In this document: piece by piece, positions 4,231 to 39,109 of the stretch
Numbering within the stretch: position 1 is the stretch's first letter
How the letters are laid out: each line of letters begins with the position of its first letter
Assembly (NCBI GenBank): GCA_963719425.1
Contig: OY970382.1
Coordinates: 7,888-71,887, forward strand
Length of the DNA: 64,000 nt
Source: an uncultured bacterium
GTDB lineage: Bacteria; Patescibacteriota; Minisyncoccia; UBA6257; 2-01-FULL-56-20
Direction: 5' to 3'
The notes under the pieces: generated by a model
The model's input: only the letters and a program-made list of their open reading frames with translations
What the model was told of the DNA's origin: nothing
The model's database searches: none
Made by a program: the position numbers and the translations under genes

Positions 4231-4719
4231 ATGACATTCGATTGGAAAAAGCTGTTCATAGTCGCATATTCCAAGGCACAAGAGAGCACGAATCCATCTA
4301 CGCAAAACGGGGCTGTTTTGGTCAATGAATCTGGAGATATTGTTATGGTCGCAGCGAATACTTTTCCCGAAGGTATCAAGGAAATTCCGGAGCGGCGGGT
4401 CAAACCGTTGCGATATGTATTCAGCGTGCACGCCGAAAGAAATGCGATTTATCAAGCCGCGAAAGTTGGTGTCAAAACAAATGGTCTTACTATGGTTTGT
4501 TGTTGGGGTGCATGTACCGACTGCGCTCAAGCAATAATTCAATCGGGCATCAAACGGTTAGTCGTGCACAAGCAAGCCCTTGATCGATCTGGGAGTTGGC
4601 AGGAGAACATACGTTTAGCCTTTGATATGCTACGCGAAGCGGGCGTGGAAATTGTTGTTTATGACGGAAAAATTGGCATAGGAAAAATCCTGCGCGACAG
4701 AGCGCATTGGGAACCTTGA
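4231..4719 (+). CDS. dCMP/cytidine deaminase family protein (ComEB-like)
   Basis: Zinc-binding motifs HAERNAI and CWGACTDCAQAI (H-A-E ... C-x2-C). Alternative TTG start at 4204. Confidence 0.7.
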   Translation: MTFDWKKLFIVAYSKAQESTNPSTQNGAVLVNESGDIVMVAANTFPEGIKEIPERRVKPLRYVFSVHAERNAIYQAAKVGVKTNGLTMVCCWGACTDCAQAIIQSGIKRLVVHKQALDRSGSWQENIRLAFDMLREAGVEIVVYDGKIGIGKILRDRAHWEP

Positions 4720-4745
4720 TAATTCAATAGTTTGTGATAACCGTC

Positions 4746-4778
4746 AAAATCGCTCAAAGATCGTCCAGGTCGGCGCGC
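4746..4778 (+). promoter_or_regulatory. Conserved intergenic motif, copy 4 (AAAATCGCTCAAAGATCGTCCAGGTCGGCGCGC)
   Basis: Motif alignment; a TATACT -10-like element lies about 20 nt downstream; pilT starts at 4821. Confidence 0.55.
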
Positions 4779-4820
4779 GGCCGTTTCCCTTTGTGGTATA
4801 CTTTAGAAAAAGAACCACCC

Positions 4821-5897
4821 ATGGCGGAAGATTATAAGACGAGATTGAATGAGCTTTTGACGACGTGCGCGAAGCAGAGCGCTTCCGATTTGCACCTCGC
4901 GGTCGGACGGCGGCCGACATTACGTATTGACGGCACCCTTGTGCCGCTTCAGAAGGAGCCTATTATGACGCCCGAGGTTGCGGAAGGCATCATTTCGGAG
5001 CTTACCACCACGGAGCAGAGGGAGAGACTTATTACCCAGCGGCAGCTTGACCTCGCCTATAGTTTTGAGGACAAAGCGCGGTTCCGTGTGAATGTCTATT
5101 ACCAGCGCGGCTACCTCGCGGCAGCGCTACGCCTCGTGCCCGCGCGCATCAGGACGATTGAGGAATTGAACCTCCCGCCCCTTCTCCACGATTTCAGCAA
5201 ACTGTCGCAGGGATTCGTCCTCGCCGTAGGTCCCGCAGGACACGGGAAGTCATCAACGCTCGCGGCAGTCCTTGACGAAGTGAACCACACCCGGGCCGAC
5301 CACATCATTACCATTGAGGATCCGGTTGAATATCTTTTTACGCAGGATAAATGCATCGTTTCACAGCGCGAAATAGGAAGCGATGCAGTGAGCTTTCATA
5401 GCGCCCTGCGCACCGTTCTGCGGCAGGACCCGGACGTCATCATGATCGGCGAAATGCGCGACACTGTTTCCATTTCTACCGCAATGACGGCAGCGGAAAC
5501 AGGGCACCTGGTATTTTCCACGCTGCACACGAACTCCGCGTCGCAGACGATCGATCGCATTATTGATTCTTTTCCGGCTGAGCAGCAGGGGCAGGTGACC
5601 TCCCAGCTCGCGGCGACCTTGGTCGCGATTGTTTCTGAGCGTCTCTTGCCGAGAATCTCCGGTGGCCGCATCCCATCCATGGAAATTATGATTGTGAATC
5701 CGGCCATTCGGAACCTTATCCGCGAGCGGAAAACGTATCAGGTTGATCTCGTGATTGAGACTTCGTTGCAGGAGGGCATGGTGACGCTGAACCGCTCGCT
5801 TGTGAATCTCATAAAAAACAAGGAAGTAACGCTCGAGAATGCCGAACTCTATTCATTGAATCCGGCGGAACTTCGGATTCTCCTTGAACGGACATAA
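4821..5897 (+). CDS. pilT: Twitching-motility / pilus retraction ATPase
   Basis: Walker A GPAGHGKSST; PilT-type Asp and His boxes; ~358 aa hexameric secretion ATPase architecture. Start at MAEDYK. Confidence 0.85.
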   Translation: MAEDYKTRLNELLTTCAKQSASDLHLAVGRRPTLRIDGTLVPLQKEPIMTPEVAEGIISELTTTEQRERLITQRQLDLAYSFEDKARFRVNVYYQRGYLAAALRLVPARIRTIEELNLPPLLHDFSKLSQGFVLAVGPAGHGKSSTLAAVLDEVNHTRADHIITIEDPVEYLFTQDKCIVSQREIGSDAVSFHSALRTVLRQDPDVIMIGEMRDTVSISTAMTAAETGHLVFSTLHTNSASQTIDRIIDSFPAEQQGQVTSQLAATLVAIVSERLLPRISGGRIPSMEIMIVNPAIRNLIRERKTYQVDLVIETSLQEGMVTLNRSLVNLIKNKEVTLENAELYSLNPAELRILLERT

Positions 5898-5899
5898 TA

Positions 5900-7111
5900 A
5901 TGAGATTTAAGTATCAGGCCAAAACTAAGGAAGGGGAGATGCAGGTCGGGCTCGTAGAGGCAGGGAACCGCGATGGTGCCGTGAGTATTCTCACAAGCCA
6001 CGATCTCTTCATTTTGAGCGTGGAACCTGAAGAAAAGATGGGCTTTCTTGACCGAATCTCCTCATTTTTGAACCGCGTTCGCCGCAAGGATATGATCGTC
6101 TTCACGCGCCAACTCGCGACGCTCCTTGAGGCAAGGGTTCCTTTGAATAATGCGTTGAAGACCCTGCGCGACCAGACGGCGAATAGAATTCTCCAAGATG
6201 TGGTTACGCGGGTTTCTGAAGATATTGACGCAGGCCTTGCATTTTCCCAGGCGATGGAGCGGCAGGAGGGAGTATTCCCCGATTTCTACATCGAGATGGT
6301 ACGGGCTGCGGAGGTGACCGGAAATATGAACGAAGTTGTGGAATTCCTTGCTGATTATAGCGAGAAGGAAGGGACCCTCATGAGCAAAGTGGTCTCGGCC
6401 CTCATTTATCCCGCGATCGTGATAGCACTTTTTCTCGTGGTTGCTTTCATCCTCGTCACCTTTGTGTTTCCGTCTATCGGGACGGTGTTCTCCCAGAATG
6501 ATGTGCAACTGCCATGGTTTACGCAGGCGCTCCTCTCGGTGGGGAGTTTCATGGCGCAATGGTGGATTGTCGTTGTGGTCGCCGCGATCGTTCTCGGGGT
6601 GGCCCTCGTCGATTATTTTGAGACTGTCGAGGGGAAAGCGCTCCTGGACGATCTGAAGATCCGGTTACCCATCGCGAAGAAGATATATATTCCCGTCATC
6701 ATGGCGCGCTTCGGGAATTCGGCGGCGCTTCTCGTCCACGGCGGCATTCCCATCGCGCAGTCGCTGGAGATCATCAGCCGTATGGTAGGGAACACGCTCT
6801 ATGAGGATATTATCCACGACATCGCCGGCGATGTGCGCCAAGGAAAACTCCTTTCCGAGAGCATCGCGAGCCATCCAAGATTTTTTCCAACGATCGTTTC
6901 CCAAATGGTTGCGGTGGGCGAGACGACCGGGAAAACCGAGGAAATGTTTGCTCGGCTTGCGAGCATTTATATGCGGGAGACCGACCTGGTTTCAAATAAT
7001 CTCGTCGAGCTCATTCAACCCATCTTGATGGTGGGGATGGGCGTTATGGTCGGACTCCTTTTTGCCTCCATTCTTGTTCCTATCTATAGCCTGTCGGCGA
7101 ATATCCACTAG
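5900..7111 (+). CDS. pilC: Type IV pilus inner-membrane platform protein (PilC/GspF)
   Basis: Two GspF-like repeats and three TM segments; ATG lies 2 nt after the pilT stop. Confidence 0.85.
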   Translation: MRFKYQAKTKEGEMQVGLVEAGNRDGAVSILTSHDLFILSVEPEEKMGFLDRISSFLNRVRRKDMIVFTRQLATLLEARVPLNNALKTLRDQTANRILQDVVTRVSEDIDAGLAFSQAMERQEGVFPDFYIEMVRAAEVTGNMNEVVEFLADYSEKEGTLMSKVVSALIYPAIVIALFLVVAFILVTFVFPSIGTVFSQNDVQLPWFTQALLSVGSFMAQWWIVVVVAAIVLGVALVDYFETVEGKALLDDLKIRLPIAKKIYIPVIMARFGNSAALLVHGGIPIAQSLEIISRMVGNTLYEDIIHDIAGDVRQGKLLSESIASHPRFFPTIVSQMVAVGETTGKTEEMFARLASIYMRETDLVSNNLVELIQPILMVGMGVMVGLLFASILVPIYSLSANIH

Positions 7112-7147
7112 CCTTTTCCCCCAGATTAGTTATCCACAGGGAGCGGC

Positions 7148-7175
7148 TTGCCACAGGTTCCCATATTGTTATAAT
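7148..7175 (+). promoter_or_regulatory. Sigma70-like promoter TTGCCA-N16-TATAAT 7 nt upstream of the pilA ATG (leaderless-type)
   Basis: TTGCCA at 7148-7153 and TATAAT at 7170-7175; the ATG is at 7183. Confidence 0.5.
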
Positions 7176-7182
7176 TGTTGTA

Positions 7183-7746
7183 ATGGAACTGATGGTTGGC
7201 AGAGAAAGCAGAGAAAAACGAGGCTTTACCCTCATCGAAATCCTGGTCGTTGTCGCCATTATTGCGGTTTTGGCATCAGTGGTTTTGGTCGGTTTGGGCC
7301 CGACCCAACAGACGGCGCGCGATGCGCGCAGGCTTTCCGACATCCGGGAAGTGCAGAACGCCCTTGAGCTTTACTACTATAAGTGCGGTTACTATCCTGG
7401 CAGCGCGTCCGGCGGTACTTGCGCGGCGGGCAGTCCCGGCAGCGATTGGAACGGCTTAGCGGGTACACTTGGGGGCGCGAACATTGGCGTTAGTGCGAGT
7501 TCTATACCGTCTGACCCTAGCGCAAATCGGACGTATGGGTATGCGTATAACACGGGCAATACTACGTACGTGCTCGGCGCGGCGCTTGAGAACCCGAACA
7601 ACAGCGTACTCACGAGTTACAGTGCGCCATCTACCAGTGGGTATACTTGGGTGCCGAGCGGCGGCAGTGCGATCGGCCCGAATGCGTCCTGCAGCGGGCA
7701 GCCTACGAATAGCGGCAGCGGAGCTACCTATTGCATCTCGCTCTGA
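7183..7746 (+). CDS. pilA: Type IV major pilin (PilA-like)
   Basis: Prepilin leader MELMVGRESREKRG/FTLIEILVVVAIIAVLASVV; Gly/Ser/Thr-rich C-terminal half ending in C...C. Confidence 0.8.
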   Translation: MELMVGRESREKRGFTLIEILVVVAIIAVLASVVLVGLGPTQQTARDARRLSDIREVQNALELYYYKCGYYPGSASGGTCAAGSPGSDWNGLAGTLGGANIGVSASSIPSDPSANRTYGYAYNTGNTTYVLGAALENPNNSVLTSYSAPSTSGYTWVPSGGSAIGPNASCSGQPTNSGSGATYCISL

Positions 7747-7796
7747 TAGTTTTTTAGGGATGCGGTTTTGCATCGCATGCGTGGTAGAATAGCATC

Positions 7797-8633
7797 ATGC
7801 TTTCCGCCACCATCCTTTTCCTCTGCGGCCTCGCGGTCGGAAGTTTTATGAATGTTCTCGCCTTGCGGTATGACGGCGGGCATTTTTTATTTGACCCGAA
7901 GGTGATCGGCGGCCGTTCGCACTGCCCCCACTGCGGGCGCACCCTCGGCTGGTCCGAGCTCATCCCCATCGCAAGCTTTTTCGTTCAACGGGGGAAATGC
8001 AAACACTGCGGGGTGCCCATCGGGCTTCACTACCCGCTCGTGGAATTACTTTCGGGACTTGTTTTTGTATTTGTGCCGCTTTGGCTTGGGGGAGATTTCT
8101 TCCTTTCGGTGCTTTGGATCGCGGCATTGGAAGCATTACTCCTCGTCGCCTACATTGATATCCGCCTCCAAATCGTGCCGGACGAACTGAATATCATGCT
8201 CGCGATCGTCGCCATTTTTGCAGCCATTTTTTCCGTCGGGTATCTCGGCCCGGCGAACCATTCCTTTCTCGGCCCCTATGCGGCACCGTTCGGTTTGCAG
8301 AATAATTTTTGGGCGAGCCATCTTATCGGCGCTCTCTTTGGCGGAGCATTTTTCGGCGCGTTGGTTCTCATAACCCATAGGAAGGGCATGGGGGTAGGCG
8401 ATGTGAAGCTTGGCCTCCCACTCGGCTTGCTTTTTGGCTGGCCGGACATTCTTCTTCTCTATGGATCGGCCTTTGTCATCGGCGCGCTCGTTGGCGCGGT
8501 GCTGCTTCTCGAAAAGAAGAAAACCATGAAAAGCGCCCTGCCCTTCGCACCATTTCTCGCGCTTGGGGCTGCCTTTGTTTTTTTCTTCGGTGCCGCCGCT
8601 CTTGGATGGTATTTTCGTATAATAGGTCTATGA
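7797..8633 (+). CDS. pilD: Prepilin peptidase (A24 family)
   Basis: N-terminal tetracysteine CPHCGR...CKHCGV; multiple TM helices; conserved D residues typical of PilD. Confidence 0.85.
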   Translation: MLSATILFLCGLAVGSFMNVLALRYDGGHFLFDPKVIGGRSHCPHCGRTLGWSELIPIASFFVQRGKCKHCGVPIGLHYPLVELLSGLVFVFVPLWLGGDFFLSVLWIAALEALLLVAYIDIRLQIVPDELNIMLAIVAIFAAIFSVGYLGPANHSFLGPYAAPFGLQNNFWASHLIGALFGGAFFGALVLITHRKGMGVGDVKLGLPLGLLFGWPDILLLYGSAFVIGALVGAVLLLEKKKTMKSALPFAPFLALGAAFVFFFGAAALGWYFRIIGL

Positions 8634-9223
8634 AGGGCTTTACCCTCCTTGAACTCCTTATCGTCATTGCAATCTCCGCAATGCTCTCAGCGATCGCCAT
8701 AACCTATACGAGCATCGCGAGAAATCAGGTGGCGCTTTCGGTTGAAACCGCGAAGGCCTCCCAGTTTATTCTTCGCGCAAAAAGTCTTGCTATCGCAACT
8801 TATAACAGTGCCCCCGGCACCTGCGGATACGGGGCATCGTTCAACATCGCGAATAATACCTATTCGCTCTTCGCCTACACCCCAGATCCCTCCAAATACA
8901 ACGGCACCGTTTCGCCCTGTCCAAGCGTAGCGTCTACCACCGCGTTGGGGATTTCTTCCGGCGAGATGGGACAATCTTCACAGAGTTCTTGGAATGTACC
9001 GCTCGCGAACGGCGTTCGCATGGAGTCGGGAGGGAATGGCGACGACCTTGCGCTTGTGCTCTTCTCTCCGCCTGATCCCGCAGTTTTGATCAGCCGCGAC
9101 GGCCAAAACTTTCTTGACCCCGCTGCGACCCAGAACATAACCTCAAAGGTCTATCTTATCACTGCCGACGGTAGCGCATCTGCTACGATTTCTGTGAGTG
9201 CCGCAGGGCAGATCAACTTTTGA
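8630..9223 (+). CDS. Minor (pseudo)pilin with prepilin N-terminus MKG/FTLLELLIVIAISAML
   Basis: Class III signal; ATGA overlap with the pilD stop. Confidence 0.7.
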   Translation: MKGFTLLELLIVIAISAMLSAIAITYTSIARNQVALSVETAKASQFILRAKSLAIATYNSAPGTCGYGASFNIANNTYSLFAYTPDPSKYNGTVSPCPSVASTTALGISSGEMGQSSQSSWNVPLANGVRMESGGNGDDLALVLFSPPDPAVLISRDGQNFLDPAATQNITSKVYLITADGSASATISVSAAGQINF

Positions 9224-19721: not shown

Positions 19722-20864
19722 ATGACTGCCGAAATCGTTATCACATCACCGGAAGAGAAATCCCTCCAGGCGGAGATTGAGAGGAGAAGCGACGCGGAAG
19801 GGGCACGCATGCTGCGGTTCATGCGGATGCCGGACCTTTCGCGCACGAAAGGGAGCCCGATTTGCGAAATTGTGCAGCGTATCGTGGCACTCCCGGATTT
19901 CAAGACATTCGACGTTGTGCAGGTGCCGGAGATTGTGCCCGCGCGGGAGAGTTTTGATCTTTTTAATTTTCCGCCCGACCATCCCGCCCGCAGCCGCTCC
20001 GACACGTATTACGTGAACAACGACTACATTTTGCGCACGCACACCACGATCATGTGGTATTACTGGCTCGGCCTTTCCAAGGTGAAAGAGAAAATGCAGC
20101 GTGGGGAAGCAGTGGGCGCCTTGTGCTACGGCAAGGTATATCGCAAGGACGAGATAGACCGTGAGCACATGAACATATTCCACCAGATGGACGGTTGGTA
20201 TCTTTGTCGCCGAGAGGAAAAAGAGATAGGCCTGGAAGACCTGAAAGCCGTTTTGGTAAAGATCGCGCAGGCAATTTACGGGCCGGACATCAAGTATCGT
20301 TTCAATAAAGATACGTTTCCCTACACGGATCCGAGCTTGGAGATGGAAATAGAAGTGGGGGGGCGCTGGGTGGAGGTCTTGGGCAGTGGCGTCGTACAGC
20401 CGAAGGTTTTGGACAACTTCGGCGTTGATTCTCGCGTTTGGAATGGCTGGGCGTTTGGCTTCGGCCTGGAGCGGCTTGCCATCTTGAGCATGCAGCTTCC
20501 CGACATCCGGCTCTTGTGGTCGCGGGACCTGCGCGTCACGCGCCAGCTCCGCCTTGGGAATGCTTATAAAGAGGTAAGTAAATTCCCTCCCGTCAGCCGC
20601 GATATTTCGTTCGTCGTGGGCGCGGGCTTCGTGCCCAATAATTATTTTGATGTTATCCGCGACATCGGTGGCGACCTTGTGGAAGAGGTGGCATTGCTTG
20701 ATAAGTATGAAAATCCGGAAAAATTCGGCAAAGGGAAAACAAGCTATACCTTCCGCGTGGTCTATCGCGGGAACGACAGGACGCTCACAAACGCGGAGGT
20801 GGACGTGATACATCACGCGCTTGAAGGAAAGACTGCCGACGAGTTCGGCGGAACGGTACGGTAG
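19722..20864 (+). CDS. pheS: Phenylalanine--tRNA ligase alpha-type catalytic subunit fused to a C-terminal FDX-ACB anticodon-binding domain
   Basis: Class II motifs (FPYTDPSLEMEI; motif 3 GWAFGFGLERLAILSM); ~95-aa C-terminal extension KFPPVSRDISFVV...YRGNDRTLTNAEVD resembling the PheT / mitochondrial PheRS FDX-ACB domain. Confidence 0.75.
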   Translation: MTAEIVITSPEEKSLQAEIERRSDAEGARMLRFMRMPDLSRTKGSPICEIVQRIVALPDFKTFDVVQVPEIVPARESFDLFNFPPDHPARSRSDTYYVNNDYILRTHTTIMWYYWLGLSKVKEKMQRGEAVGALCYGKVYRKDEIDREHMNIFHQMDGWYLCRREEKEIGLEDLKAVLVKIAQAIYGPDIKYRFNKDTFPYTDPSLEMEIEVGGRWVEVLGSGVVQPKVLDNFGVDSRVWNGWAFGFGLERLAILSMQLPDIRLLWSRDLRVTRQLRLGNAYKEVSKFPPVSRDISFVVGAGFVPNNYFDVIRDIGGDLVEEVALLDKYENPEKFGKGKTSYTFRVVYRGNDRTLTNAEVDVIHHALEGKTADEFGGTVR

Positions 20865-20886
20865 TATTTCCGTTATAGTTAAGGAG

Positions 20887-22344
20887 ATGGCAAAACTTCT
20901 CGCACCGAAAGAAGTTTCTGAAATCGCCCTCACGCTCGCAAAGGCGGGATTTGAGGCGTATCTTGTCGGTGGCTGCGTGCGGGACATGCTCTTGGGCCGC
21001 GAGCCTAAGGATTGGGATGTGGCGACGAACGCGCGGCCGGAGGAGATCCAGAAACTTTTTCCGGAGAGCGTGTACGAGAATTCGTTCGGCACAGTGGGCG
21101 TGAAAACCGAATCGGAGGATCCAAAGCTCGCGGTGATTGAAGTGACGACCTATCGGATTGAGGGGAGATATACGGATAAGCGGCATCCGGATGAGGTAAA
21201 GTTCGCGAAGACGATTCAGGAAGATTTGGCCCGCCGCGATTTTACGGTGAATGCGCTCGCGATGAATTTGAAAGGAGAAGTGTACGATCCATTCGGAGGG
21301 AAGAATGATTTGAAGAGCAGGATAATTCGCACGGTGGGGAGTCCGGAGGAGCGGTTCAATGAAGACGCGCTACGCCTCATGCGCGCGGTGCGCTTTGCGG
21401 TGGAATTGGATTTTGAGATCGAGATGAACACGCGCCGCGCAATTGAGAAGCAATCGCCTGAGCTTGAGATGATTGCGAAGGAACGCGTCCGCGACGAACT
21501 CGTGAAGATAATGGAGACGCCGCAGGCGGCAAAGGGGATCATTCTTTTGGAAGAACTCGGTTTGCTGCAGTATGTTTTGCCGGAACTGCGCGAGGGGCTG
21601 GGCGTCGGGCAGAATCTGCACCATATCTATACGGTATTTGAGCATAGCGTCCGATCGCTGGATTACGCCGCGAAGCAGGATTATCCGCTCGTGATCCGGA
21701 TGGCGGCGCTCTTGCACGATGTCGGTAAACCGCGCGCGAAACAGGGCGAGGGCCGCAATGCTACTTTCTATCAGCACGAATTCATCAGTGCGAAAATGAC
21801 CGCAAAGGCGCTGGACCGCCTGCGGTTCTCAAAGGAATTTATAGAAGAGGTGACGCACCTTGTTCGTTACCACATGTTCTATTACAACGTGGGGGAGGTC
21901 TCCGAGCGGGGGGTGCGCAGGTTTCTTGCGCGCGTGGGGCCGGAAACCGTGCCAGACCTCTTCAAGGTGCGCGAGGCCGACCGCATTGGCTCCGGCGCGC
22001 CAAAGGCCACGCCATACAAGAATCGCCACCTGATGTTCATGATTGAAAAAGTGAAGAATGACCCGGTTTCGCCGAAGATGCTCAAAGTGAACGGCGATGA
22101 CGTGATGGAGATATTGCGTATCCCGCCGGGCCACCGCGTTGGGTGGGTGCTCGCCATATTGCTTGAAGAGGCGCTGGACGATCCTGAAAAGAACATTAAA
22201 GAAAACTTGACAGTGCGCGTCACGGAGCTGGGGAAACTCTCCGACGCGGAGTTAAAAAAGCTTGCCGAGAAAGCCCGCACTACGAAAGACGAATTTGAGG
22301 AAGGGCTGGAAGAAGAAATAAAAAAGAAGTATTTTGTAAAGTAA
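20887..22344 (+). CDS. cca: CCA-adding tRNA nucleotidyltransferase with HD domain
   Basis: Head motif GGCVRDMLLGREPKDWDVAT; HD motif HDVGK. Start at MAKLLAP, preceded by AAGGAG. Confidence 0.8.
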   Translation: MAKLLAPKEVSEIALTLAKAGFEAYLVGGCVRDMLLGREPKDWDVATNARPEEIQKLFPESVYENSFGTVGVKTESEDPKLAVIEVTTYRIEGRYTDKRHPDEVKFAKTIQEDLARRDFTVNALAMNLKGEVYDPFGGKNDLKSRIIRTVGSPEERFNEDALRLMRAVRFAVELDFEIEMNTRRAIEKQSPELEMIAKERVRDELVKIMETPQAAKGIILLEELGLLQYVLPELREGLGVGQNLHHIYTVFEHSVRSLDYAAKQDYPLVIRMAALLHDVGKPRAKQGEGRNATFYQHEFISAKMTAKALDRLRFSKEFIEEVTHLVRYHMFYYNVGEVSERGVRRFLARVGPETVPDLFKVREADRIGSGAPKATPYKNRHLMFMIEKVKNDPVSPKMLKVNGDDVMEILRIPPGHRVGWVLAILLEEALDDPEKNIKENLTVRVTELGKLSDAELKKLAEKARTTKDEFEEGLEEEIKKKYFVK

Positions 22345-22738
22345 TGAGATCTTTTCACGACGAGCAGCTGTGGAGCACCCTTTGCACTTTGTGGACCGTT
22401 GTCTTTATGATCTTCGTCGTCGCAAATTTTTTCTTATTCAACAGGTACGAGCCGCTTATTCTTCCGTTGAGCGCGGTGTACGCCGGCGTCCTCACGCTCT
22501 ATGCGGGCACAAAGGAGTTTGATCGTTGGTACGACATTCATGACAGCCGACACCCCGCGAGCTTTTCGTCATCGCATGGACCGTGCTCATCTTCACGCTT
22601 GCCGCCATCGCTTTTTTCTCCAGCGGCAGGGGCTATGTCCTCGATTCCGAGATCGTTGCGGATTACATCATGGTGCTTTCCATCTTTGCCATCACGCAAA
22701 AATCAAAACAGCTTCACCGGACGCGGCGGAGAGGGTAA
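22344..22738 (+). pseudogene. Small 4-TM membrane protein disrupted by a frameshift near 22555 (C-run caccccgcg)
   Basis: Frame 0 gives MRSFHDEQLWSTLCTLWTVVFMIFVVANFF...RHP; the hydrophobic continuation ELFVIAWTVLIFTLAAIAFF...IMVLSIFAITQKSK is in frame 2, ending at 22738. Confidence 0.4.
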
Positions 22739-22779
22739 GTTGAATTATTTTCCAAAAGAGGGTTAAATAGTTTAGATAA

Positions 22780-22853
22780 CGGGCCGTCGTATAGTGGTAG
22801 TATACACGCTTCGGGTGCGTGCGGTCTGGGTTCGATTCCCAGCGGCCCGACCA
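22780..22853 (+). tRNA. tRNA-Pro (CGG)
   Basis: Acceptor CGGGCCG/CGGCCCG; anticodon arm CACGC-TTCGGGT-GCGTG (matches the E. coli proK loop TTCGGGA); T-loop TTCGATT; A73 and CCA encoded. D-arm slightly irregular. Confidence 0.6.
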
Positions 22854-22947
22854 GGATCCCTTGTGTTTCTTTCGGGGGTGGCTATAATGGGCTCAGGAGG
22901 CGATTTGTTGGAAGCCTTTCAAATTTCGGAAGAGGGAGGTGAGGACA

Positions 22948-23301
22948 ATGCCGCAGGCGGTGATTGTGAAGTACTGTCGCTTGGACACCGAACTTACTGC
23001 AGCAATGGAAGACGCCGCAGCAAAGAAGGCGAAATTGGTACCGATCCTAGTCTGCAGCGTCTGTAACCCGCGGAATCACAACCGGGGACATCTCAATATC
23101 GATACCACATGGAAAGTTCTGGTGGAAAAGAAATTCCTGTGCCTTGGGCATTTCAGGCAACATGTTTCTGGGAATCGGGTGGAGTTCGGCATGAGCGAAA
23201 AAAGCGAAGTTAATAACCTTGCCGTTATGCCGTTATTGGTTCCTGCACAGCACATCGTGGGCCTCTACTTCCCCAAGGGGAAGTCACATCCCGATTTTTA
23301 G
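22948..23301 (+). CDS. Hypothetical small protein with CxxC and CLGH motifs
   Basis: RBS GAGGGAGG 8 nt upstream of the ATG; 117 aa. Confidence 0.4.
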   Translation: MPQAVIVKYCRLDTELTAAMEDAAAKKAKLVPILVCSVCNPRNHNRGHLNIDTTWKVLVEKKFLCLGHFRQHVSGNRVEFGMSEKSEVNNLAVMPLLVPAQHIVGLYFPKGKSHPDF

Positions 23302-23366
23302 CCCGCCACGCGAAGTGATACATTTGTTGGTATCCTCCTCGCGGCGGGCCGTTCTTTTACATATAC

Positions 23367-23394
23367 ACAAGGGTATTGACACGGTTTTGCGGCC
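23367..23394 (+). promoter_or_regulatory. Near-consensus promoter TTGACA-N16-TATAAT upstream of the rRNA locus
   Basis: TTGACA at 23367-23372 and TATAAT at 23389-23394. Confidence 0.6.
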
Positions 23395-23486
23395 GTGTAT
23401 AATTGACTTCGTACGGATGGACAAGAATTTCAACCTTCAAGATCACAGCGGCTGAACCGCGCGTTTTTGCGCACCGGATAAGCCGC

Positions 23487-23512
23487 CGTGTGCGGCTGGT
23501 TTTTTTCTTGGG
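23487..23512 (+). terminator. Intrinsic terminator-like hairpin AGCCGC-CGTGT-GCGGCT followed by a T7 run
   Basis: Perfect 6-bp stem, 5-nt loop and TGGTTTTTTT; lies about 100 nt downstream of the promoter at 23367. Confidence 0.5.
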
Positions 23513-24279
23513 ATTCGTGCAAACTTCGTAATTTCACAGAAGATTCATCAGTGATTGGTTTGTAACAACCAGTTGCTGGGAGAATCTCTCCGAATTGTAG
23601 AGTCGGGGAAGGAATAGTAGAAGCTCTGCATCATGTTTTTTGCCATCGCATTTTGGCAAATCCAATTTCTTACGATCGGCAGAGCAAAAAGTCAGCATTG
23701 GGATGGTTGGCATTTCCGTCGCAAGACGGATCTCAATAAGGGCGAATGGTGGATGCCTTGACTAGAAAAGGCGATGAAGGACGTGGCGTAGCGACGATAC
23801 GCCTCGGGGAGGTGCGTAGCAACCTGTGATCCGGGGATGTCCGAATGGGGAAACCTAATTACGTAAACCGTAATTGTTTCGGCGCAAGCCGATTCGCGTA
23901 CCTGGCGAAGTAAAACATTTCAGTAGCCAGAGGAACAGAGAACAAATCAGTTTATTCCCTTAGTATCGGCGAGAGAAAAGGGAAGGGCCCAAACTAAGGT
24001 TCTGATTTTTTCGGAATCTTGGGGTAATAAGAGAAAGACGCTGTTTTGCCGGTCGCCGAGCTTCCGTATAATCGGGACTTCGGCGATTGGTGAAATAAGG
24101 AGGAGTCAAAAAATCGTTGGTTAGCCAAAGCCGGCTGGAAAGCCGGGGCCAAAGCGGGTGATAGCCCCGTAGGCGAAAACTTACGATCTCCTTAGTTTTT
24201 CAACTTGAGTACTTCGGGGTAAATAAGTCCCGAAGGAATTTGCCTGTACTATCAGGCAAGGCTAAATACTTTTCTAGAT

Positions 24280-24316
<37 letters not shown>

Positions 24317-25100
24317 CAGGCCGGCGAGGCCGTTGAAATAGAACCTGAAACCATTTGTCTACAAGGAATTGAAGCTCCAAGTGCGGATGCAGCAATGCGT
24401 TCGCGCGGGGCGACAATGTGCCTATTGAAGAATGAGCCAACGACTTATCTTGTGTTGCTTGTCTAAACGCGCATAGCGTGCAGGCATAGCGAAAGCGAGT
24501 CTTAATAGGGCGTACATCCCACTCAATTTATTGGGTGGGATCGCAGCACAAGGTAGACCCGAAGCCAGATGAGCTTGCCTTGGCCAGGGTGAACCTCGGA
24601 GAAATCCGAGGGGAGGCCCGAACTGGTGAGTTGTTCAAAACTCTCGGATGAGCTGAGGTAAGGAGTGAAAAGCTAATCGAATTTGGTAATAGCTGGTTCT
24701 CTCCGAAATAGTTTTAGGACTAGCGGTGCGGAAAATCTTGCGGGGGTAGAGCACTGGATGATCTGTAAAGGCCGAAAGGCCGACAGATCAATCAAACTCC
24801 GAATACCGCAGGCGGATCCCGCACTAGTCAGACTGCGGGGGCTAAGCTCCGTGGTCGCGAGGGGAAGAGCCCAGACCGTTATCTAAGGTCCCCAAATCCA
24901 TGCTAAGTGTGAAAGGTAGTCATCACCCATAGACAGATAGGAGGTTGGCTTAGAGGTAGCCATCCTTTAAAGAGTGTGTAACAACTCACTATTCGACGGG
25001 TGGTGGCGCCGAAAATGTACCGGGGCTAAGCATGGTACCGAAGATACGGATTCGCTGACTTCATTGAGGAAAAATTTGTTCTTTGATTTGCGGCTTTGTG

Positions 25101-25173
25101 TGACGCGTAGCTCAGTTGGTAGAGCATCCGACTCTTAATCGGAAGGTCGCGGGTTCGAACCCCGTCGCGTCCA
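25101..25173 (+). tRNA. tRNA-Lys (CTT) embedded in the 23S IVS
   Basis: D-arm GCTCAGTTGGTAGAGC; anticodon arm TCCGA-CTCTTAA-TCGGA; T-loop TTCGAAC; acceptor has a T1:C72 mismatch; CCA not encoded. Confidence 0.6.
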
Positions 25174-25210
25174 CCCACCGTCTTTGATGGTGGAGAGAAA
25201 GCTCATGTGT

Positions 25211-25355
25211 CGGAGCGTAGCACAAGGGTAGTGCGCCTAGATGATCTTAAGTCTCCGGACCGTCAAAAGGATTTATGAATGACCTTTTGGCCCGCCGGCA
25301 GCGCGAGGTCTGTGCAACTAGGAGGTTGCAGGTTCAAGTCCTGTCGCTCCGACCA
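25211..25355 (+). tRNA. tRNA-Ile (GAT)-like gene interrupted by a ~70-nt insertion in the anticodon loop
   Basis: Acceptor CGGAGCG/CGCTCCG plus A73 and CCA; D-arm GCACAAGGGTAGTGC; anticodon stem CCTAG (25236-40) pairs with CTAGG (25318-22); loop ends ATGAT...AA would reconstitute ATGATAA; T-arm GCAGG-TTCAAGT-CCTGT. Confidence 0.4.
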
Positions 25356-26116
25356 AAAGTTTTGAGCGAGGCGTGTCGACACTATACTGTCGCGCGCCTC
25401 GCCTCCTCAATGAAGTCAGTGAGTGGTAGGAGAGCATTCGTACTGCAGTGAAGCCCGACCCGCGAGGGCGAGTGGAGCGATACGAAGAGAAAATGTTGGC
25501 ATGAGTAACCACAATCCCAATGAGAAATTGGAACCCCGAAAATCCAAGGTTTCCGTGGCACTGGCAATCAACCACGGGTTAGGCGATCCTAAGGCAATGG
25601 CGAAAGCCGCAGCTGATGGCATGCTGGTTAATATTCCAGCCCTCCTTTGTGATTATCCGTCGTGTGCGAAGGAAATAGGTGCGTATGCCTTATTGGTTTG
25701 GTATCGCTGGTCCGAAGTTCAACAAGGATCGGCGGAAGGTGAGGAATTTACCTCATCAACACGCATGAAGAGCCTTCCAAGAAAAGCGCGGCGGTTACGT
25801 TGCAGAGGATCCGTACCGTAAACCGACACAGGTGGATAGGGCGAGAAGCCCAAGGGGAACGAGTGATTTGCCTCTAAGGAACTCGGCAAAAAAGCGGCCG
25901 TACGTTTGCTATATGGCCTGATCTTCCTTAACCGGAAGATCCGCAGCGAAAGTTTCTCTGGCGACTGTTTACCAAAAACACAGCTCCCTGCTAACTCGCA
26001 AGAGGATGTATAGGGGGTGACGCCTGACCGATGCGAGAAGGTCAAGGTTGGGAGTGCCGTGCCGCAAGGTGCGGGACCCACTGACTCAAGCCCTCGTCAA
26101 TGTCAGCGATAACTAT

Positions 26117-26832
26117 AGACATAACGATTGTAGTTATAAAATCTGGCTATATGCTGGAAACTCTGTGTATCTGACATTACGGTATTTAATGAAAATTTTA
26201 TCCAAATTTAATTTTCATGTGGTACCGTGAAAATATGATCAGTGCAGACAATCAGCAGGAAAGGCTTTGTGGCATTGGTTGGTATCTTGCCGGCTTCGTT
26301 GATGGAGAGGGAAGTTTTAATACTTCTCTCCGAAAAGGAAATGGGCACCGCCTCGGATGGCAGGTGCAATTAACCTTCAATGTAGCCCAAAGGGATATCA
26401 GCAACCTGGAATTGTTAAAACAATATCTAGGATGCGGACGATTACAATATCGTAAAGATGGAGTACATTACTTCGTCGTGAGCGATTACCGTTCGATTAT
26501 TGATCGCGTAATACCGTTCTTTGAGAAATTCACGTTTTTCTCCGCTTCCAAGAAGAAGAATTTTTCTCTATTCAAGCAAATTGCATTTCTGATGGGTCAA
26601 GGAAAACATCTTGATCCGGCGGGATTGCAAGAAATTATTGCAATTAGGGAATATTTGAACGAGGGAAGAGGAAGGACGCGGAAATATAACAAAGACGATA
26701 TCACGATCGACCACAAAGAATCCTCAGAGACTATACGCCGGAGTTCATCAATGGTGATGGACAAGATATAGTCCGATCTCATGGGCGACCATGAGGATCC
26801 CGCTTAAAAACGAGCGAGTGATAACGTAAAAG
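26117..26832 (+). mobile_element. Group I intron at the 23S L1917-equivalent site, carrying a LAGLIDADG homing endonuclease gene
   Basis: 5' exon ends AACTAT(U); intron ends in G; the flanking exons AACTAT|AATCGTTCTAAGGT align to E. coli AACUAU|AACGGUCCUAAGGU. Confidence 0.6.
26235..26771 (+). CDS. LAGLIDADG homing endonuclease (single-motif, I-CreI/I-CeuI-like)
   Basis: Motif LAGFVDGEGSF; ~180 aa; lies inside the rRNA intron. Alternative start at 26217. Confidence 0.8.
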   Translation: MISADNQQERLCGIGWYLAGFVDGEGSFNTSLRKGNGHRLGWQVQLTFNVAQRDISNLELLKQYLGCGRLQYRKDGVHYFVVSDYRSIIDRVIPFFEKFTFFSASKKKNFSLFKQIAFLMGQGKHLDPAGLQEIIAIREYLNEGRGRTRKYNKDDITIDHKESSETIRRSSSMVMDKI

Positions 26833-26846
26833 AATCGTTCTAAGGT

Positions 26847-27083
26847 GGAATTGGTACTGCCTTAGTAAAACCTAACTATATGCTGGAACACCCGCGCATA
26901 TCAGAGTACCGAAAGGTGACAATCTCTGATCGAAGCGGACAATCAGCAGGAAACTTCACGGGAAGGATCCTCAGAGACTACACGTTAGGATCGCCGCAAG
27001 GCGATAAGATATAGTCCGAACTGCATAACGATATGCAGAGCCAAGCAGAAATGTTTTGGCCAACAAAAGTTGTAACACGTTCG
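26847..27083 (+). mobile_element. Short ORF-less group I intron at the L1931-equivalent site; a paralogue of the L1917 intron with the endonuclease gene deleted
   Basis: 5' exon ends TAAGGT(U); intron ends in G before AGCGCAATTCC (E. coli AGCGAAAUUCC). Shares blocks CTATATGCTGGAA, GACAATCAGCAGGAAA, ATCCTCAGAGACTAYACG and AGATATAGTCCGA with intron 1 in the same order. Confidence 0.5.
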
Positions 27084-27780
27084 AGCGCAATTCCTTTTCG
27101 GGTAAGTTCCGAAGCGCACGAAAGGCGTAACGACTGGAGAACTGTCTCGGAGGCAAGCTCGGTGAAAATGCGATTCCCGTGAAGACGCGGGATACCTGCA
27201 GCGGGACGAAAAGACCCCGGAAGCTTTACTGCAGCTTGGTATTGTCTTTAGGATCTTGATGCGTAGCGTAGTGGTGAGGATTTGAAGCCGCGCTCTCGGG
27301 TGCGGTGGATCCGACAATGAAACAGCCATCTTTAAGATTTTAAAGACTAACTGATGTGGAAGTGCGCAAGCATAAACCATATCAAGACAGTGCTTGGTAG
27401 GCAGTTTAAATGGGGCGTTTTCCTCCAAAAGAGTAACGGAGGAGTTTATTAAGGTCGGCTTAGCCCGGATGGAAATCGGGCAGGACGTGCAAACGCAAAA
27501 GCCGGCTTGACTGCGAGACCTACAAGTCGAGCAGGTGCGAAAGCAGAAGTTAGTGACCCGACGGCTATGTTCATGCGTGTTTTACTACGTGCATGAATTC
27601 TTGATAGAAAGGCCGGAGACACCGGATAAAAGCTACTCCGGGGATAACAGGCTGGTGAAGTCCGAGAGTTCCTATCGACGACTTCGCTCGGCACCTCGAT
27701 GTCGGCTCGCGACAGCGCCCGGGTGGAGAAGCTCGGAAGCGTTTGGCTGTTCGCCAATTAAAGTCGCACGTGAGCTGGGT

Positions 27781-28102
27781 GAGTGAACAACACTTCAAAT
27801 GAGCCCAGCAATCCTTTACACGAGGCTCGATTGTGTCCCAATCGAGAGAAAACAAAAAAGGAAAATAAATTGACTCATAACGGCGAAGTCCTCAGAAAGG
27901 ATAATGCCGTGGGAAGGTTGCGGTTTTTTTCCAGGCGCTCTTTTTGCGCCAAGAGAATCGTGAACCCCCGTAACGACTTGATCGTTTATGCGATCGGAGC
28001 GAAAAGATGGGAAGATCGTCTTCTCGCTAAAACGTCAGTCCTTGCGATTGGAATAGCAAGGAAAGGAATAGTCTAGTGCTCTTAGCAATAAGAGGAACAT
28101 TG
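27781..28102 (+). mobile_element. ORF-less group I intron at the L2593-equivalent (I-CreI target) site of 23S
   Basis: 5' exon ends GAGCTGGGT(U); intron ends in G; 3' exon resumes TCAGACCGTCGTGAGACAGG (E. coli UUAGAACGUCGUGAGACAG). Confidence 0.55.
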
Positions 28103-28134
<32 letters not shown>

Positions 28135-28252
28135 TGCTGCAGGCGTTTACACTTGAGGGGAGTTGGCATTAGTACGAGAGGACTTTGCTGAACCTACCTC
28201 TGGTCTACCGGCTTTGGTACCAACTGAACTGCCGGGTAGCTATGTAGGGAAG

Positions 28253-28286
<34 letters not shown>

Positions 28287-28508
28287 ACCCCAAGATTAGG
28301 TGTGTGTGATTTCGTGGAAGACTACCACGTTGATAGGCTCCAGGTGTAAGGCCCGCAAGGGTTTCAGCCGAGGAGTACTAATAATCCCGCCAACCATCCC
28401 AATGCTGACTTTGTTGTGTTCGTTTCGCCGTCAAAACTCTGAAGCGAACACTCTCTGCTAACAAAAAGGAGTGAGTGCGCTATAACTTATAGCGCGCGAA
28501 ACGACCTT

Positions 28509-28634
28509 TTGATGTCGGTGCTCTATCCGGGCGTGTCCCACCTCTTCCCATTCCGAACAGAGAAGTGAAAGCGCCCCGATCCCATGATACTTGCGGGTTC
28601 GCCTGCGGGGAAAGTAGGATGTGCCGACATCAAA
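28509..28634 (+). rRNA. rrf: 5S rRNA
   Basis: Terminal helix TTGATGTCGGTG / GCCGACATCAA; conserved CCCATTCCGAACAGAGAAGTGAAAGCGC. Confidence 0.8.
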
Positions 28635-28647
28635 GGGCCGTTTTTTT
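28609..28647 (+). terminator. Putative terminator: 5S terminal helix followed by a T7 run
   Basis: GGGCCGTTTTTTTG immediately after the 5S 3' end. Confidence 0.35.
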
Positions 28648-28684
28648 GTTCGCGGCATATTTGTAACCTTGGATAAGATTTGGT

Positions 28685-29470
28685 ATGTTGGAGTCAATGA
28701 GCAAAGAGGGACTGCCTGAACGCGTTCCGGGTGAGTCGGAGAACGTGGGCACGCCGGAAAAGAAAGAGATTAAAATGGTGGAAGCCGTAAGGATTCGGAC
28801 GGTTTTTACGGACCAGAAGGCGTTGGAGAAAATCGCTGACAAGTTGCATTCAGAAGGATTTGTCAGCGGGTTCAGCGTAGAACCCATTGAGGCCGGCTAC
28901 TTTCGCCATGGGGGGCGGGTCAAGGAGCACCAATACGCGTTGGATCTTTTGATCGATCCCAGCGGGACCAAAGAGCGCCGGCAGACCGTCATCCAGGTTA
29001 TAAACTCGGAGATAGGGAAAAAGTGGGAAACACCAGCTATCACCGAAGAAAAAGTTCAGATCAATAAGGATCTTCTGGGATTTATAAAAAGGGCTGAGAC
29101 CGAATACGGGAGGTATAGAAAAGAAAGACGCATGCGTCTTTCGCTCACCCTGGCCTTGCTTATGAGTATTTCTGGATTGATAGGTGCTGTTTCAAAAAGA
29201 TATGTCGAACGCAGAGAGGAAAAAGCGGTAGCCGCAGAACGTGAGAAAGAGTTTGAGCGCCTTAATAGGATCAATCAAAAGATTCAATTACAGATTTCTA
29301 ATATCGAGTTGAAATTACAAATAGGTCGACAGCTAGAAAAAAAATCAGAGATTGACGGGATCGATCATTATCCGGAGATTGATCAAATCGAAAATACGGT
29401 TGAAGAAGGAGTTGGTGAAATTATGAAACTGATGGAACTTGAAAAGGGGAAGGAGCGAGACAATCGCTGA
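28685..29470 (+). CDS. Hypothetical protein (N-terminal alpha/beta domain, central TM, C-terminal coiled coil)
   Basis: ORF with TM segment LSLTLALLMSISGLIGAV; no confident family assignment. Confidence 0.45.
   Translation: MLESMSKEGLPERVPGESENVGTPEKKEIKMVEAVRIRTVFTDQKALEKIADKLHSEGFVSGFSVEPIEAGYFRHGGRVKEHQYALDLLIDPSGTKERRQTVIQVINSEIGKKWETPAITEEKVQINKDLLGFIKRAETEYGRYRKERRMRLSLTLALLMSISGLIGAVSKRYVERREEKAVAAEREKEFERLNRINQKIQLQISNIELKLQIGRQLEKKSEIDGIDHYPEIDQIENTVEEGVGEIMKLMELEKGKERDNR

Positions 29471-32368: not shown

Positions 32369-39109
<6,741 letters not shown>

Follow-up and report, generated by a model that had tools for sequence, protein, structure and literature searches.

The window analysed here, a 64-kb stretch of DNA, carries a 23S rRNA gene on its + strand (23728–28401; Rfam RF02541, bacterial LSU, 2029.8 bits, model positions 1–2925) with a 5S rRNA gene 3' of it (28513–28630). 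No 16S gene lies within the 64-kb window, and 16S is here unlinked to 23S. A separate canonical tRNA-Pro(CGG) is found at 22780. The 23S gene is 4674 nt long, against 2925 positions in the model, and contains several insertions. One Rfam search, which also covered the insert that concerns us below, places a group I intron at 26796–27038.

An earlier, sequence-only reading of this DNA had held that the 23S gene is broken by an insertion at helix 45 and had named a covariance-model alignment to the LSU as the check. That alignment, run over 24850–25650, agrees: 25064–25415 is a pure insertion between LSU model positions 1218 and 1219. The inserted segment, about 350 nt long, sits in a hairpin loop after the conserved ...ACCGAAG..., and the alignment picks up again at ...CAGUGAGUGGUAGGAGAGC. 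We take the interrupted hairpin to be helix 45 (E. coli ~1170), judging by the known E. coli sequence. Relative to the bacterial LSU consensus the locus thus has extra sequence in the loop, which is the kind of 23S insertion that marks a helix-45 intervening sequence (IVS). The insert as a whole shows folding far above that of shuffled sequences (z = −6.7). There is no credible open reading frame in the window's insert, and we rejected a protein-coding role on this basis. Nor did Rfam detect a group I intron (RF00028) core in it (25040–25430, E values up to 10). An assembly artefact was rejected because dozens of independent assemblies share the same architecture.

The insert is closed by an extended helix-45 stem, whose 5' strand (25050–25070, +) and 3' strand (25404–25424, +) are identified by an inverted repeat and by covariation in relatives. 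The repeat itself (25052–25070 / 25404–25422) has arms separated by 333 nt and reaches 21 bp when G-U pairs are counted. The perfect 15-bp stem described in the sequence-only reading is real (25055–25069 / 25405–25419) and lies within this longer repeat. A helix of 21 uninterrupted base pairs matches classical RNase III substrates in size and thus provides the long RNase III-suitable stem expected of a helix-45 IVS.

The same closing helix delimits 55 distinct inserts in Patescibacteria-like (CPR) 23S genes. The window's own assignment to CPR goes by the named relatives of its 23S and by its gene content. Across the 53 distinct sequences of a family alignment (A1), the helix is paired in 99.6% of cells, and both partners have changed in 13 of its 21 pairs. 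Of the pairs, seven outer and two inner ones are independent of the criteria by which the inserts were extracted; these pairs covary and are paired in nearly all sequences. The helix core, UUCAU(U/A)GAGGA, is nearly invariant across the family.

Two further elements near the ends of the insert recur in relatives. The 5' spacer and tRNA leader (25071–25100, +) contains the family motif GTTCTTT (25078–25084), which is present in 21 of the 55 distinct inserts, compared with 1.0 in shuffles, and mostly stands right after the 5' strand of the helix. At the other end, a GC-rich hairpin (25366–25401, +) borders directly on the closing helix's 3' strand. It is recognised from its predicted fold and from its recurrence: a hairpin occupies the 3' position in 53 of 55 distinct inserts (20.4 of 55 in shuffles), with differing sequences. 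No T run follows the hairpin at 25366–25401, which therefore does not look like a terminator. A smaller hairpin, CCACCGUC-UUU-GAUGGUGG, was read from the sequence of the tRNA-Lys 3' trailer (25175–25193, +) and is part of the minimum-free-energy fold. The sequence-only reading had also mentioned small hairpins, as possible processing sites.

Between the ends lie two tRNA-related units. The first, at 25101–25173 (+, tRNA positions 1–73), is a tRNA-Lys(CUU). ARAGORN calls it at 25101–25175, Rfam scores it at 67.9 bits with the tRNA family (RF00005; gathering score 29) and our own tRNA covariance model, built without this tRNA's sequence, scores it at 77.8 bits (E 1e-21), which bears out the canonical tRNA-Lys(CTT) that had been recognised from the letters. 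The anticodon loop, CUCUUAA, is canonical (7 nt, U33, purine at 37), and the discriminator is A73. CCA is not encoded; the genome has CCC after A73. At the end of the acceptor stem stands a U1.C72 mismatch where the homologue in the closest relative, L065, has G1:C72; the mismatch could mean weaker RNase P processing or charging, or it could be a sequencing error.

Comparison with L065, whose 23S is 91% identical to that of the window and whose insert also contains a tRNA-Lys(CUU), is informative about selection. The two tRNAs differ by six compensatory pair changes and zero one-sided changes and have identical anticodon loops, and the spacers around them are unalignable. Because stem changes are compensatory and the anticodon loop is unchanged, the comparison lends indirect support to tRNA-Lys(CUU) being a selected, functional tRNA that is processed and used in translation. 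We consider a working decoder its most likely identity; AAG makes up half of all Lys codons within the window.

The second unit is a tRNA-derived element at 25211–25355 (+), recovered by ARAGORN in intron mode, by a scan for acceptor-plus-T-arm modules and by our own model, which matches it as separate halves (25211–25263, E 5e-4; 25296–25352, E 6e-5). The acceptor stem is 7 bp long (C1:G72), and A73 and CCA are both encoded. The D arm comes with U8, A14 and G18G19, the anticodon stem comprises 5 bp (CCUAG/CUAGG), the variable loop is 5 nt long, and the T-arm loop reads UUCAAGU. In place of the 7-nt anticodon loop, however, the element has 77 nt. The Rfam tRNA model does not report the element at E values up to 10, and it does not form a cloverleaf with a 7-nt loop. 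The second tRNA-like gene of the sequence-only reading is thus upheld as tRNA-derived and set aside as a usable tRNA: since 77 nt replace the anticodon loop, the element as encoded is not a tRNA and, judged from its sequence, should be incapable of decoding as it stands. If it is kept at all, this would presumably be for a tRNA-like top half recognised by RNase P, RNase Z and the CCA enzyme.

With regard to origin, this element is Pro-like at its acceptor end, where it matches a tRNA-Pro(CGG) of L051 exactly, and in variable loop and T arm it most resembles the insert tRNA-Val(CAC) of L044. The covariance model also offers an alternative, a 57-nt minihelix that uses the acceptor-like CGGCAGCG (25296–25303); this may be the remnant of a partial duplication or chance. 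A match to the YrlA/Y RNA-like mimic (RF02553) was discarded, having scored 20.4 bits against a gathering score of 69 and just spanning from the tRNA-Lys T arm into the second element's D arm.

Most of the extra sequence is a 70-nt stretch that ARAGORN labels an intron (25243–25312, +) and that forms a long imperfect hairpin prolonging the anticodon stem. We rejected a repeat or mobile element, as we found the stretch only once in the window and in none of the 78 loci retrieved. It matches no Rfam family and shows no group I intron core at E values up to 10. The one predicted structure that we inspected has symmetric internal loops along the extended hairpin and lacks a bulge-helix-bulge motif, and the window ORFs that we scanned yielded no splicing endonuclease domain.

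We asked how widespread tRNA cargo is among inserts of this type, as the sequence-only reading had suggested looking for the arrangement in related genomes. Within a metagenome sample chosen regardless of tRNAs, and scored with our own tRNA covariance model, 24 of 48 distinct inserts bear tRNA-model matches. At nine other loci (L001, L004, L005, L008, L009, L010, L012, L036 and L065), covariance models confirm tRNAs at this site within the 23S gene. The acceptor-plus-T-arm scan gives a consistent picture, with modules in 29 of 55 inserts compared with 0.1 of 55 in shuffles. A pattern search of 185,579 species genomes, for a tRNA T-loop 66–126 nt past the helix-45 flank, was strict and may have missed other lineages; it returned 12 loci: seven have insert tRNAs, all with the CPR-type helix; L002 and L007 are 23S genes without a tRNA; and L003, L006 and L011 are chance matches outside rRNA. 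Encoded CCA is found in 14 of 30 cases inside inserts and 6 of 24 outside (p = 0.16), and an origin by retro-insertion, which an excess of encoded CCA might have suggested, was dropped because the difference is not significant.

The units are uniform in orientation and diverse in identity. None of 37 tRNA-model matches and none of 24 ARAGORN calls lies on the rRNA antisense strand, a pattern to be expected if what is maintained is expression as part of the rRNA transcript. Among the 24 calls there are 22 different anticodons, and no amino-acid identity is preferred. Cargo length across the family extends over 57–1102 nt, and no tRNA is found in the shortest inserts, of 57, 60 and 81 nt. The closing helix is kept in every family member, tRNA present or not, which implies that tRNA units are not needed to define or remove the insert.

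Cargo is also highly variable between close relatives, which gain and lose whole tRNA units. The 23S genes of the window, L065 and L036 are ~91% identical and carry different cargo. L063 and L029 likewise differ by whole units, and a tRNA-like unit that they share is identical save for the anticodon arm, with an anticodon loop that ARAGORN finds non-standard in both copies. Throughout the family, many members carry units with anticodon loops of 6 or 8 nt, with A34 anticodons or with large insertions, suggesting that the cargo is often not under selection for decoding.

This fast turnover, together with the degenerate state of many units, is what would be anticipated if the tRNAs were redundant duplicates residing in a tolerant site, the insert being cut by RNase III and degraded and the tRNAs contributing nothing. 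The presence of a separate tRNA-Pro(CGG) at 22780, when the second element has a Pro-like acceptor end, is in keeping with such redundancy. We nevertheless regard it as improbable that the cargo is merely carried along. The stems of tRNA-Lys show six compensatory and zero disruptive changes relative to L065 amid spacers that cannot be aligned, orientation is strictly sense and stems remain intact in units that do not decode; neutral decay would not preserve them.

Intact stems in non-decoding units are a recurrent feature. In L016, L017, L025, L028 and L052, the anticodon loop is replaced by 22–75 nt and the modules score 53–64 bits; these five, like 25211–25355, keep perfect acceptor, D and T arms. 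Other units in the family have a D loop expanded by 36–54 nt. We tentatively raise the possibility, in which we have limited confidence, that such long-bodied units (anticodon loop of 22–77 nt or D loop enlarged by 36–54 nt, with acceptor and T arm and often CCA intact) represent a new selected class of bacterial tRNA-derived RNA. The proposal comes in two versions: the units could be tRNAs interrupted by a previously unknown small bacterial intron, or they could be dedicated RNase P/Z 'punctuation marks' or stable tRNA-like RNAs derived from the rRNA precursor.

The same observations can be taken further, to the view that the units as a whole are kept mainly as RNase P/RNase Z cleavage signals that remove the insert and fragment 23S, with decoding incidental. 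Perfect arms in non-decoding units, a shared L063/L029 unit that varies in the anticodon arm alone and has non-standard loops in both copies, sense orientation of all units and the lack of a preferred amino-acid identity would all fit. If this were true, tRNA-processing enzymes rather than RNase III would fragment 23S, in a bacterial counterpart of mitochondrial tRNA punctuation. We think it unlikely, however, since the 21-bp helix is present in every member, including the tRNA-free inserts of 57, 60 and 81 nt, and since the exact anticodon loop of tRNA-Lys with its covarying stems points to selection for decoding.

It is scarcely credible that the insert escapes excision and remains part of the mature ribosome, an expansion segment showing tRNA-shaped domains on the 50S surface. 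RNase P normally acts on a canonical pre-tRNA embedded in a longer transcript, so cleavage would be expected at least at that point; cargo of 57–1102 nt that changes between close relatives is moreover a misfit with a fixed structural role. What can be said for retention is that the closing helix and 3' hairpin are conserved like structural rRNA and that CPR rRNAs contain many unexplained short insertions (PMC11270868).

We thus favor as the probable explanation that the insert belongs to a type of helix-45 IVS common in CPR 23S genes that serves as a landing pad for tRNA genes, with RNases III, P and Z releasing the cargo and leaving a fragmented 23S. The order of elements is the 21-bp helix, the GTTCTTT spacer, at least one sense-strand tRNA or tRNA-like unit, the 3' hairpin and, last, the helix's second strand. 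No promoter-like site occurs on the + strand inside the insert. Upstream of the 23S gene, a sigma-70-type promoter match (TTGACA-16-TATAAT, 23376–23403, +) agrees with the consensus at 12 of 12 positions and is the sole perfect match within 22700–28800; as a consensus match only, it is the likely start of a 23S-5S transcript that would include the insert tRNAs. The promoterless units would then be transcribed within the 23S-5S precursor, probably from this site.

Processing of such a precursor can be outlined as follows. RNase III would cut the long helix as in classical IVSs, removing the insert without re-ligation. RNase P would be expected to cut at 25100/25101 and 25210/25211, and cleavage after A73 of tRNA-Lys would fall to a 3' endonuclease, RNase Z for example. 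The CCA-less tRNA-Lys would need a CCA-adding enzyme to be finished, and a gene for such an enzyme lies nearby (20821–22344, +; Pfam PolyA_pol, 1.9e-41, with PolyA_pol_RNAbd, HD and tRNA_NucTran2_2); we infer that this activity is relevant here and that the neighbouring enzyme could complete the tRNA. The mature tRNA-Lys would then end in a non-templated CCA, ...GUCCACCA, where the genome reads ...GTCCACCC. The predicted outcome is a two-piece 23S (~1.3 kb plus the rest), together with a mature tRNA-Lys(CUU) transcribed one-to-one with 23S. The window ORFs that were scanned included no rnc, and we saw no rnpA/rnpB or rnz in the window either; CPR genomes are reported to keep rnc (PMC12641178).

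These observations have practical consequences. Censuses of tRNAs and completeness checks of Patescibacteria genomes could miss tRNAs nested in 23S or judge them spurious, and an rRNA gene broken by tRNA calls could be mis-annotated. The variable cargo and the non-decoding units amount to a natural experiment on which parts of a tRNA are kept when processing alone is selected. Existing metatranscriptomes could directly reveal the non-templated CCA on tRNA-Lys.

A comparison with known systems places the insert family among several partial relatives. Classical helix-45 IVSs are found in Salmonella, Yersinia, Campylobacter, Leptospira and Coxiella, where RNase III removes them without re-ligation. 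The inserts described here resemble them in site, in a long closing helix of RNase III-substrate size, in lacking an intron ribozyme and in the predicted outcome of a fragmented functional 23S. Known IVSs are spacers of 100–450 nt, at times with an S23p open reading frame (Coxiella, PMC4990558), and our literature searches found no classical IVS that contains a tRNA. The window's family differs from them in a near-invariant helix core across a deep clade, a conserved abutting 3' hairpin and sense-oriented tRNA units that turn over.

The inserts are most likely the same as the 23IS4 insertion sequences of CPR 23S, short inserts that Tsurumaki et al. (2024, PMC11270868) classed as probable RNase III IVSs. 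Both are short, are neither group I nor group II introns and lie at a known IVS site in CPR 23S. Neither tRNA cargo nor a conserved helix core is described in that survey, and the 3' hairpin and the long-bodied units are likewise absent from it; the word tRNA has 0 occurrences in its full text.

Group I introns have been reported in tRNA genes of Patescibacteria (PMC13011429). These share with the second element the phylum, an interruption of the anticodon loop and a tendency to be missed by standard tRNA finders. Whereas those interruptions are self-splicing group I introns, the 70–77 nt in 25211–25355 have no Rfam match and are shorter than the 253-position group I model, and the same holds for the 22–75-nt replacements at related loci.

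The sequence-only reading knew of no tRNAs described inside an rRNA IVS, and our full-text literature searches likewise returned no such description. Its claim to novelty stands for bacteria, where we found no case, but has a precedent outside them: in Tetrahymena pyriformis mitochondria a tRNA gene divides the LSU rRNA (Heinonen et al., 1987, cited in PMC2996981). As far as the literature searched shows, the window's insert and its widespread family would be the first description of tRNA genes nested in a bacterial rRNA gene. As in tRNA punctuation, the mitochondrial arrangement has LSU rRNA pieces with a tRNA gene between them and tRNA ends as cleavage points. The Tetrahymena case is organellar, has another break position and rearranged pieces and involves neither an RNase III-type helix nor a family with variable cargo.

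The closest functional parallel is provided by the tRNA-Ile and tRNA-Ala found in the 16S-23S spacers of most bacteria. They are co-transcribed with rRNA and enclosed by RNase III helices; RNase P and 3' processing set them free, and their transcription is coupled to that of the rRNA. Spacer tRNAs lie between rRNA genes and have conserved identities (Ile, Ala), whereas the insert tRNAs interrupt 23S and are highly variable in identity. The spacer tRNAs are the best model of the way in which the insert probably works.

The 23S gene (23728-28401) matches the Rfam bacterial LSU model end to end (2029.8 bits) and is followed by a 5S gene (28513-28630), while an Rfam search found no 16S within the 64-kb window. 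At 4674 nt against a 2925-position model, the gene carries approximately 1.7 kb of extra sequence. A covariance-model alignment of 24850-25650 is unbroken to ...ACCGAAGAUACGGAUUCGCUGACUUC and restarts at CAGUGAGUGGUAGGAGAGC, so that 25064-25415 has no counterpart in the model and falls between its positions 1218 and 1219, within a hairpin loop. From the known E. coli sequence, we take this hairpin to be helix 45, the classical site of intervening sequences (IVSs), and the alignment thus agrees with the sequence-only reading, which had placed the insertion there. The arms of the inverted repeat that closes the insert (25052-25070 / 25404-25422) lie 333 nt apart. Counting G-U pairs, the closing helix reaches 21 bp (25050-25070 / 25404-25424), and the perfect 15-bp stem described in that reading forms its core. 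The whole insert folds well beyond shuffled sequences (z = -6.7) and contains no credible ORF and, by Rfam, no intron ribozyme. Site and helix thus assign the insert to the helix-45 IVS kind, for which excision is predicted.

Two further 23S insertions are evident relative to L012, a locus from the genome scan described below. The second large insertion (26118-27083) contains a LAGLIDADG_1 homing endonuclease ORF (26217-26771; Pfam 4.5e-21), downstream of which Rfam detects the core of a group I intron (26796-27038; 64.5 bits), and its position and content match CPR 23S intron sites reported around 1917-1952 (PMC11270868). The third, of ~322 nt near the 3' end (27781-28102), has no Rfam match at the gathering threshold and includes a terminator-like hairpin and T run (27906-27924); a degenerate group I intron lacking an ORF, in one of the sites near 2593-2657, is a possible identity.

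The helix-45 insert had been claimed to contain a canonical tRNA-Lys, and ARAGORN calls a tRNA-Lys(CUU) at 25101-25173 on the forward strand. This gene scores 67.9 bits in Rfam (gathering score 29) and 77.8 bits (E 1e-21) with our own covariance model, trained on 30 other tRNAs. It has the canonical anticodon loop CUCUUAA and discriminator A73. Its blemishes are a U1.C72 mismatch and the lack of an encoded CCA, which is also absent from three of the four other window tRNAs; a CCA-adding enzyme gene lies at 20821-22344. A metagenome locus with a 23S 91% identical to that of the window (L065) carries a homologous tRNA-Lys(CUU) in its insert, 77% identical to the window's. Between the two, six stem pairs have both bases changed, with no single-sided change apart from the window U1.C72, 4 of 31 unpaired positions differ and the anticodon loop is the same, while the spacers flanking the tRNAs are not alignable. 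These compensatory changes around an unchanged anticodon loop indicate that the tRNA is under selection for both structure and anticodon. AAG, its codon, accounts for half the Lys codons in window genes.

The second tRNA-like gene proposed for the insert is likewise present, as a tRNA-derived element at 25211-25355 (+) that ARAGORN calls in intron mode only and whose halves are each matched separately by our model (E 5e-4 and 6e-5). The element has a perfect 7-bp acceptor stem (CGGAGCG/CGCUCCG), A73 and an encoded CCA. Its D arm is standard (U8, A14, G18G19), its anticodon stem has 5 bp (CCUAG/CUAGG), its variable loop 5 nt and its T arm the loop UUCAAGU. In place of the 7-nt anticodon loop, however, the element has 77 nt predicted to fold into a long imperfect hairpin, and it is unable to decode as encoded. 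The 77 nt match no Rfam family and have no second copy in the window or in the family loci compared. The acceptor end is Pro-like (C1:G72, A73, CCA), and the 23S is preceded, a few hundred nucleotides upstream, by a tRNA-Pro(CGG) gene in the window (22780-22853), in L012 (4948-5019) and in five metagenome loci (L044, L051, L059, L065 and L075). In another metagenome locus, L036, a canonical tRNA-Pro(CGG) is located within the helix-45 insert rather than upstream. The Pro-like acceptor end of the window's element suggests that the insert and the neighbouring tRNA gene have exchanged sequence.

Elsewhere in the window, a 380-aa ORF (19722-20864, +) carries a PheRS alpha catalytic core (tRNA-synt_2d, 7.6e-56) and, at its C terminus, an FDX-ACB anticodon-binding domain (3.5e-20); no gene for a PheRS beta subunit was seen in the vicinity. 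Mitochondrial PheRS typically has this single-chain layout, whereas bacterial PheRS is usually alpha2-beta2 with FDX-ACB on the beta subunit. The window also encodes a type IV pilus cluster (141-9223 and 32369-39109; two T2SSE ATPases, T2SSF, prepilin peptidase and pilin-like N_methyl proteins), a 2246-aa ORF, LigA, GatB, ThrRS, SerRS, MiaA and LepA. Such a gene complement is in keeping with an episymbiont of small genome size.

The same arrangement was found in related genomes. We scanned 185,579 genomes (one per species) for the conserved helix-45 flank followed 66-126 nt on by a T-loop and obtained 12 loci, seven of which (L001, L004, L005, L008, L009, L010 and L012) have one or two tRNAs at the same site within the 23S match (Rfam 50.6-73.1 bits). 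All seven share the closing helix, with the core UUCAU(U/A)GAGGA / UCCUC(A/U)AUGAA. The named genomes among them are Patescibacteria and Parcubacteria MAGs, plus one labelled uncultured Bdellovibrionales (L010, CAYLPD010000011.1) that carries a CPR-type helix-45 insert with a tRNA-Asp(GUC). Because the L010 23S is closest to CPR loci (78-84% identical, a Moraniibacteriota MAG among them), this contig is probably mis-binned.

A metagenome scan that required the flank plus the initial eight bases of the helix core, but no tRNA, identified 66 loci. With the genome loci and the window added, 67 inserts (55 distinct) of 57-1102 nt could be delimited. Across 53 distinct sequences, 99.6% of closing-helix cells are paired and 13 of the 21 pairs are altered on both sides, with 12 pairs partly imposed by the procedure that locates the 3' strand. 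No such constraint applies to the seven outer and two inner pairs, which are paired in nearly every sequence (two unpaired cells) and show abundant covariation. A hairpin adjoins the 3' strand in 53 of 55 inserts (about 20 in shuffles). The most recurrent word inside the inserts, GTTCTTT (window 25078-25084), occurs in 21 of the 55 inserts (1.0 in shuffles), usually directly after the helix 5' strand or directly before the 3' hairpin, and may be recognised by a nuclease or other protein. The shortest inserts (57, 60 and 81 nt) contain little beyond the helix and 3' hairpin, and none has a tRNA. Two tRNA-less inserts of 346 and 364 nt (L015 and L049) are mostly filled by sense-strand ORFs of 97 and 88 aa, which may encode small proteins.

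We counted cargo in 48 distinct metagenome inserts chosen without regard to tRNAs. At least one ARAGORN call is present in 18 (24 calls, 19 with a standard 7-nt loop and 5 with an odd loop), and at least one match to our model at E < 0.01 in 24 (37 matches, 27 at 50 bits or more); since some of these matches are training sequences, ARAGORN provides the independent count. No call or match is antisense, and the architecture, conservation and sense orientation of the family are secure. Cargo identities include Lys, Arg, Thr, Gly, Trp, Asp, Ser, Pro, Val, Glu, Tyr, Cys and Ile, and close relatives differ: the window has tRNA-Lys and the long element, L065 has tRNA-Ser(UGA) and tRNA-Lys(CUU), and L036 (23S 90.7% identical to the window) has two odd units and tRNA-Pro(CGG). 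L063 and L029 differ by whole units, with tRNA-Asp only in the former and tRNA-Glu only in the latter, while the unit common to both is the same save for the anticodon arm, and ARAGORN assigns both copies a non-standard anticodon loop.

Seven of the matches to our model are 101-145 nt long. In alignments of long units from L016, L017, L025, L028 and L052, 22-75 nt replace the anticodon loop and the rest is canonical. L025 additionally encodes two D-loop-expanded units (1140-1245 and 1283-1407, - strand; 55-64 bits), with 36 nt added to the D loop of one and 54 nt to that of the other. Both retain a standard 7-nt anticodon loop (reading Val-GAC in one of them) and an otherwise canonical structure; insertions of this size should disturb the tRNA elbow. 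The second element of the window is thus one example of a recurrent, long-bodied sub-class of tRNA-like units.

A perfect match to the sigma-70 consensus (TTGACA-16-TATAAT, 23376-23403) forms a candidate promoter ~325 nt upstream of the 23S, and no promoter-like site was found on the + strand inside the insert. A terminator-like hairpin and T run (23481-23497) lies between this site and the rRNA start, and the region 23376-23497 could act as a leader or in antitermination. Established rRNA and tRNA processing leads us to infer that the insert would be transcribed as part of a 23S-5S precursor and that RNase III would cleave the 21-bp helix, as in classical IVSs; rnc is reported as kept in CPR (PMC12641178). 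RNase P and a 3' nuclease would then free the tRNA units, the CCA enzyme would finish tRNA-Lys and the 23S would remain in two pieces. The predicted processing, fragmentation and use of the tRNA in this scheme are well motivated. Some units may be kept as cleavage signals, as non-decoding units retain exactly the part recognised by RNase P, RNase Z and the CCA enzyme, but the universality of the helix in the family and the tRNA-free state of its shortest members argue against this being their main role.

Site, helix, both tRNA elements and recurrence in relatives thus confirm what had been observed in the window and support its interpretation: the insert is a helix-45 IVS that doubles as a tRNA gene cassette, of a type widespread among Patescibacteria-like bacteria. 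A search of full-text literature, with most subscription-journal papers outside its scope, found no description of tRNAs in a bacterial rRNA IVS. A systematic survey of CPR rRNA insertions interprets the short inserts found at this position as probable RNase III IVSs, with no mention of tRNA (PMC11270868), and a study of Patescibacteria tRNA introns is silent on tRNAs inside 23S (PMC13011429). The nearest precedent is the Tetrahymena pyriformis mitochondrial LSU rRNA, described as having a tRNA gene between its two parts (Heinonen et al., 1987, as cited in PMC2996981), which is organellar rather than bacterial. The hosts' 16S and 23S are unlinked (PMC8172020), and the insert would in effect resemble an additional internal transcribed spacer carrying its own spacer tRNAs, but one located inside the 23S.
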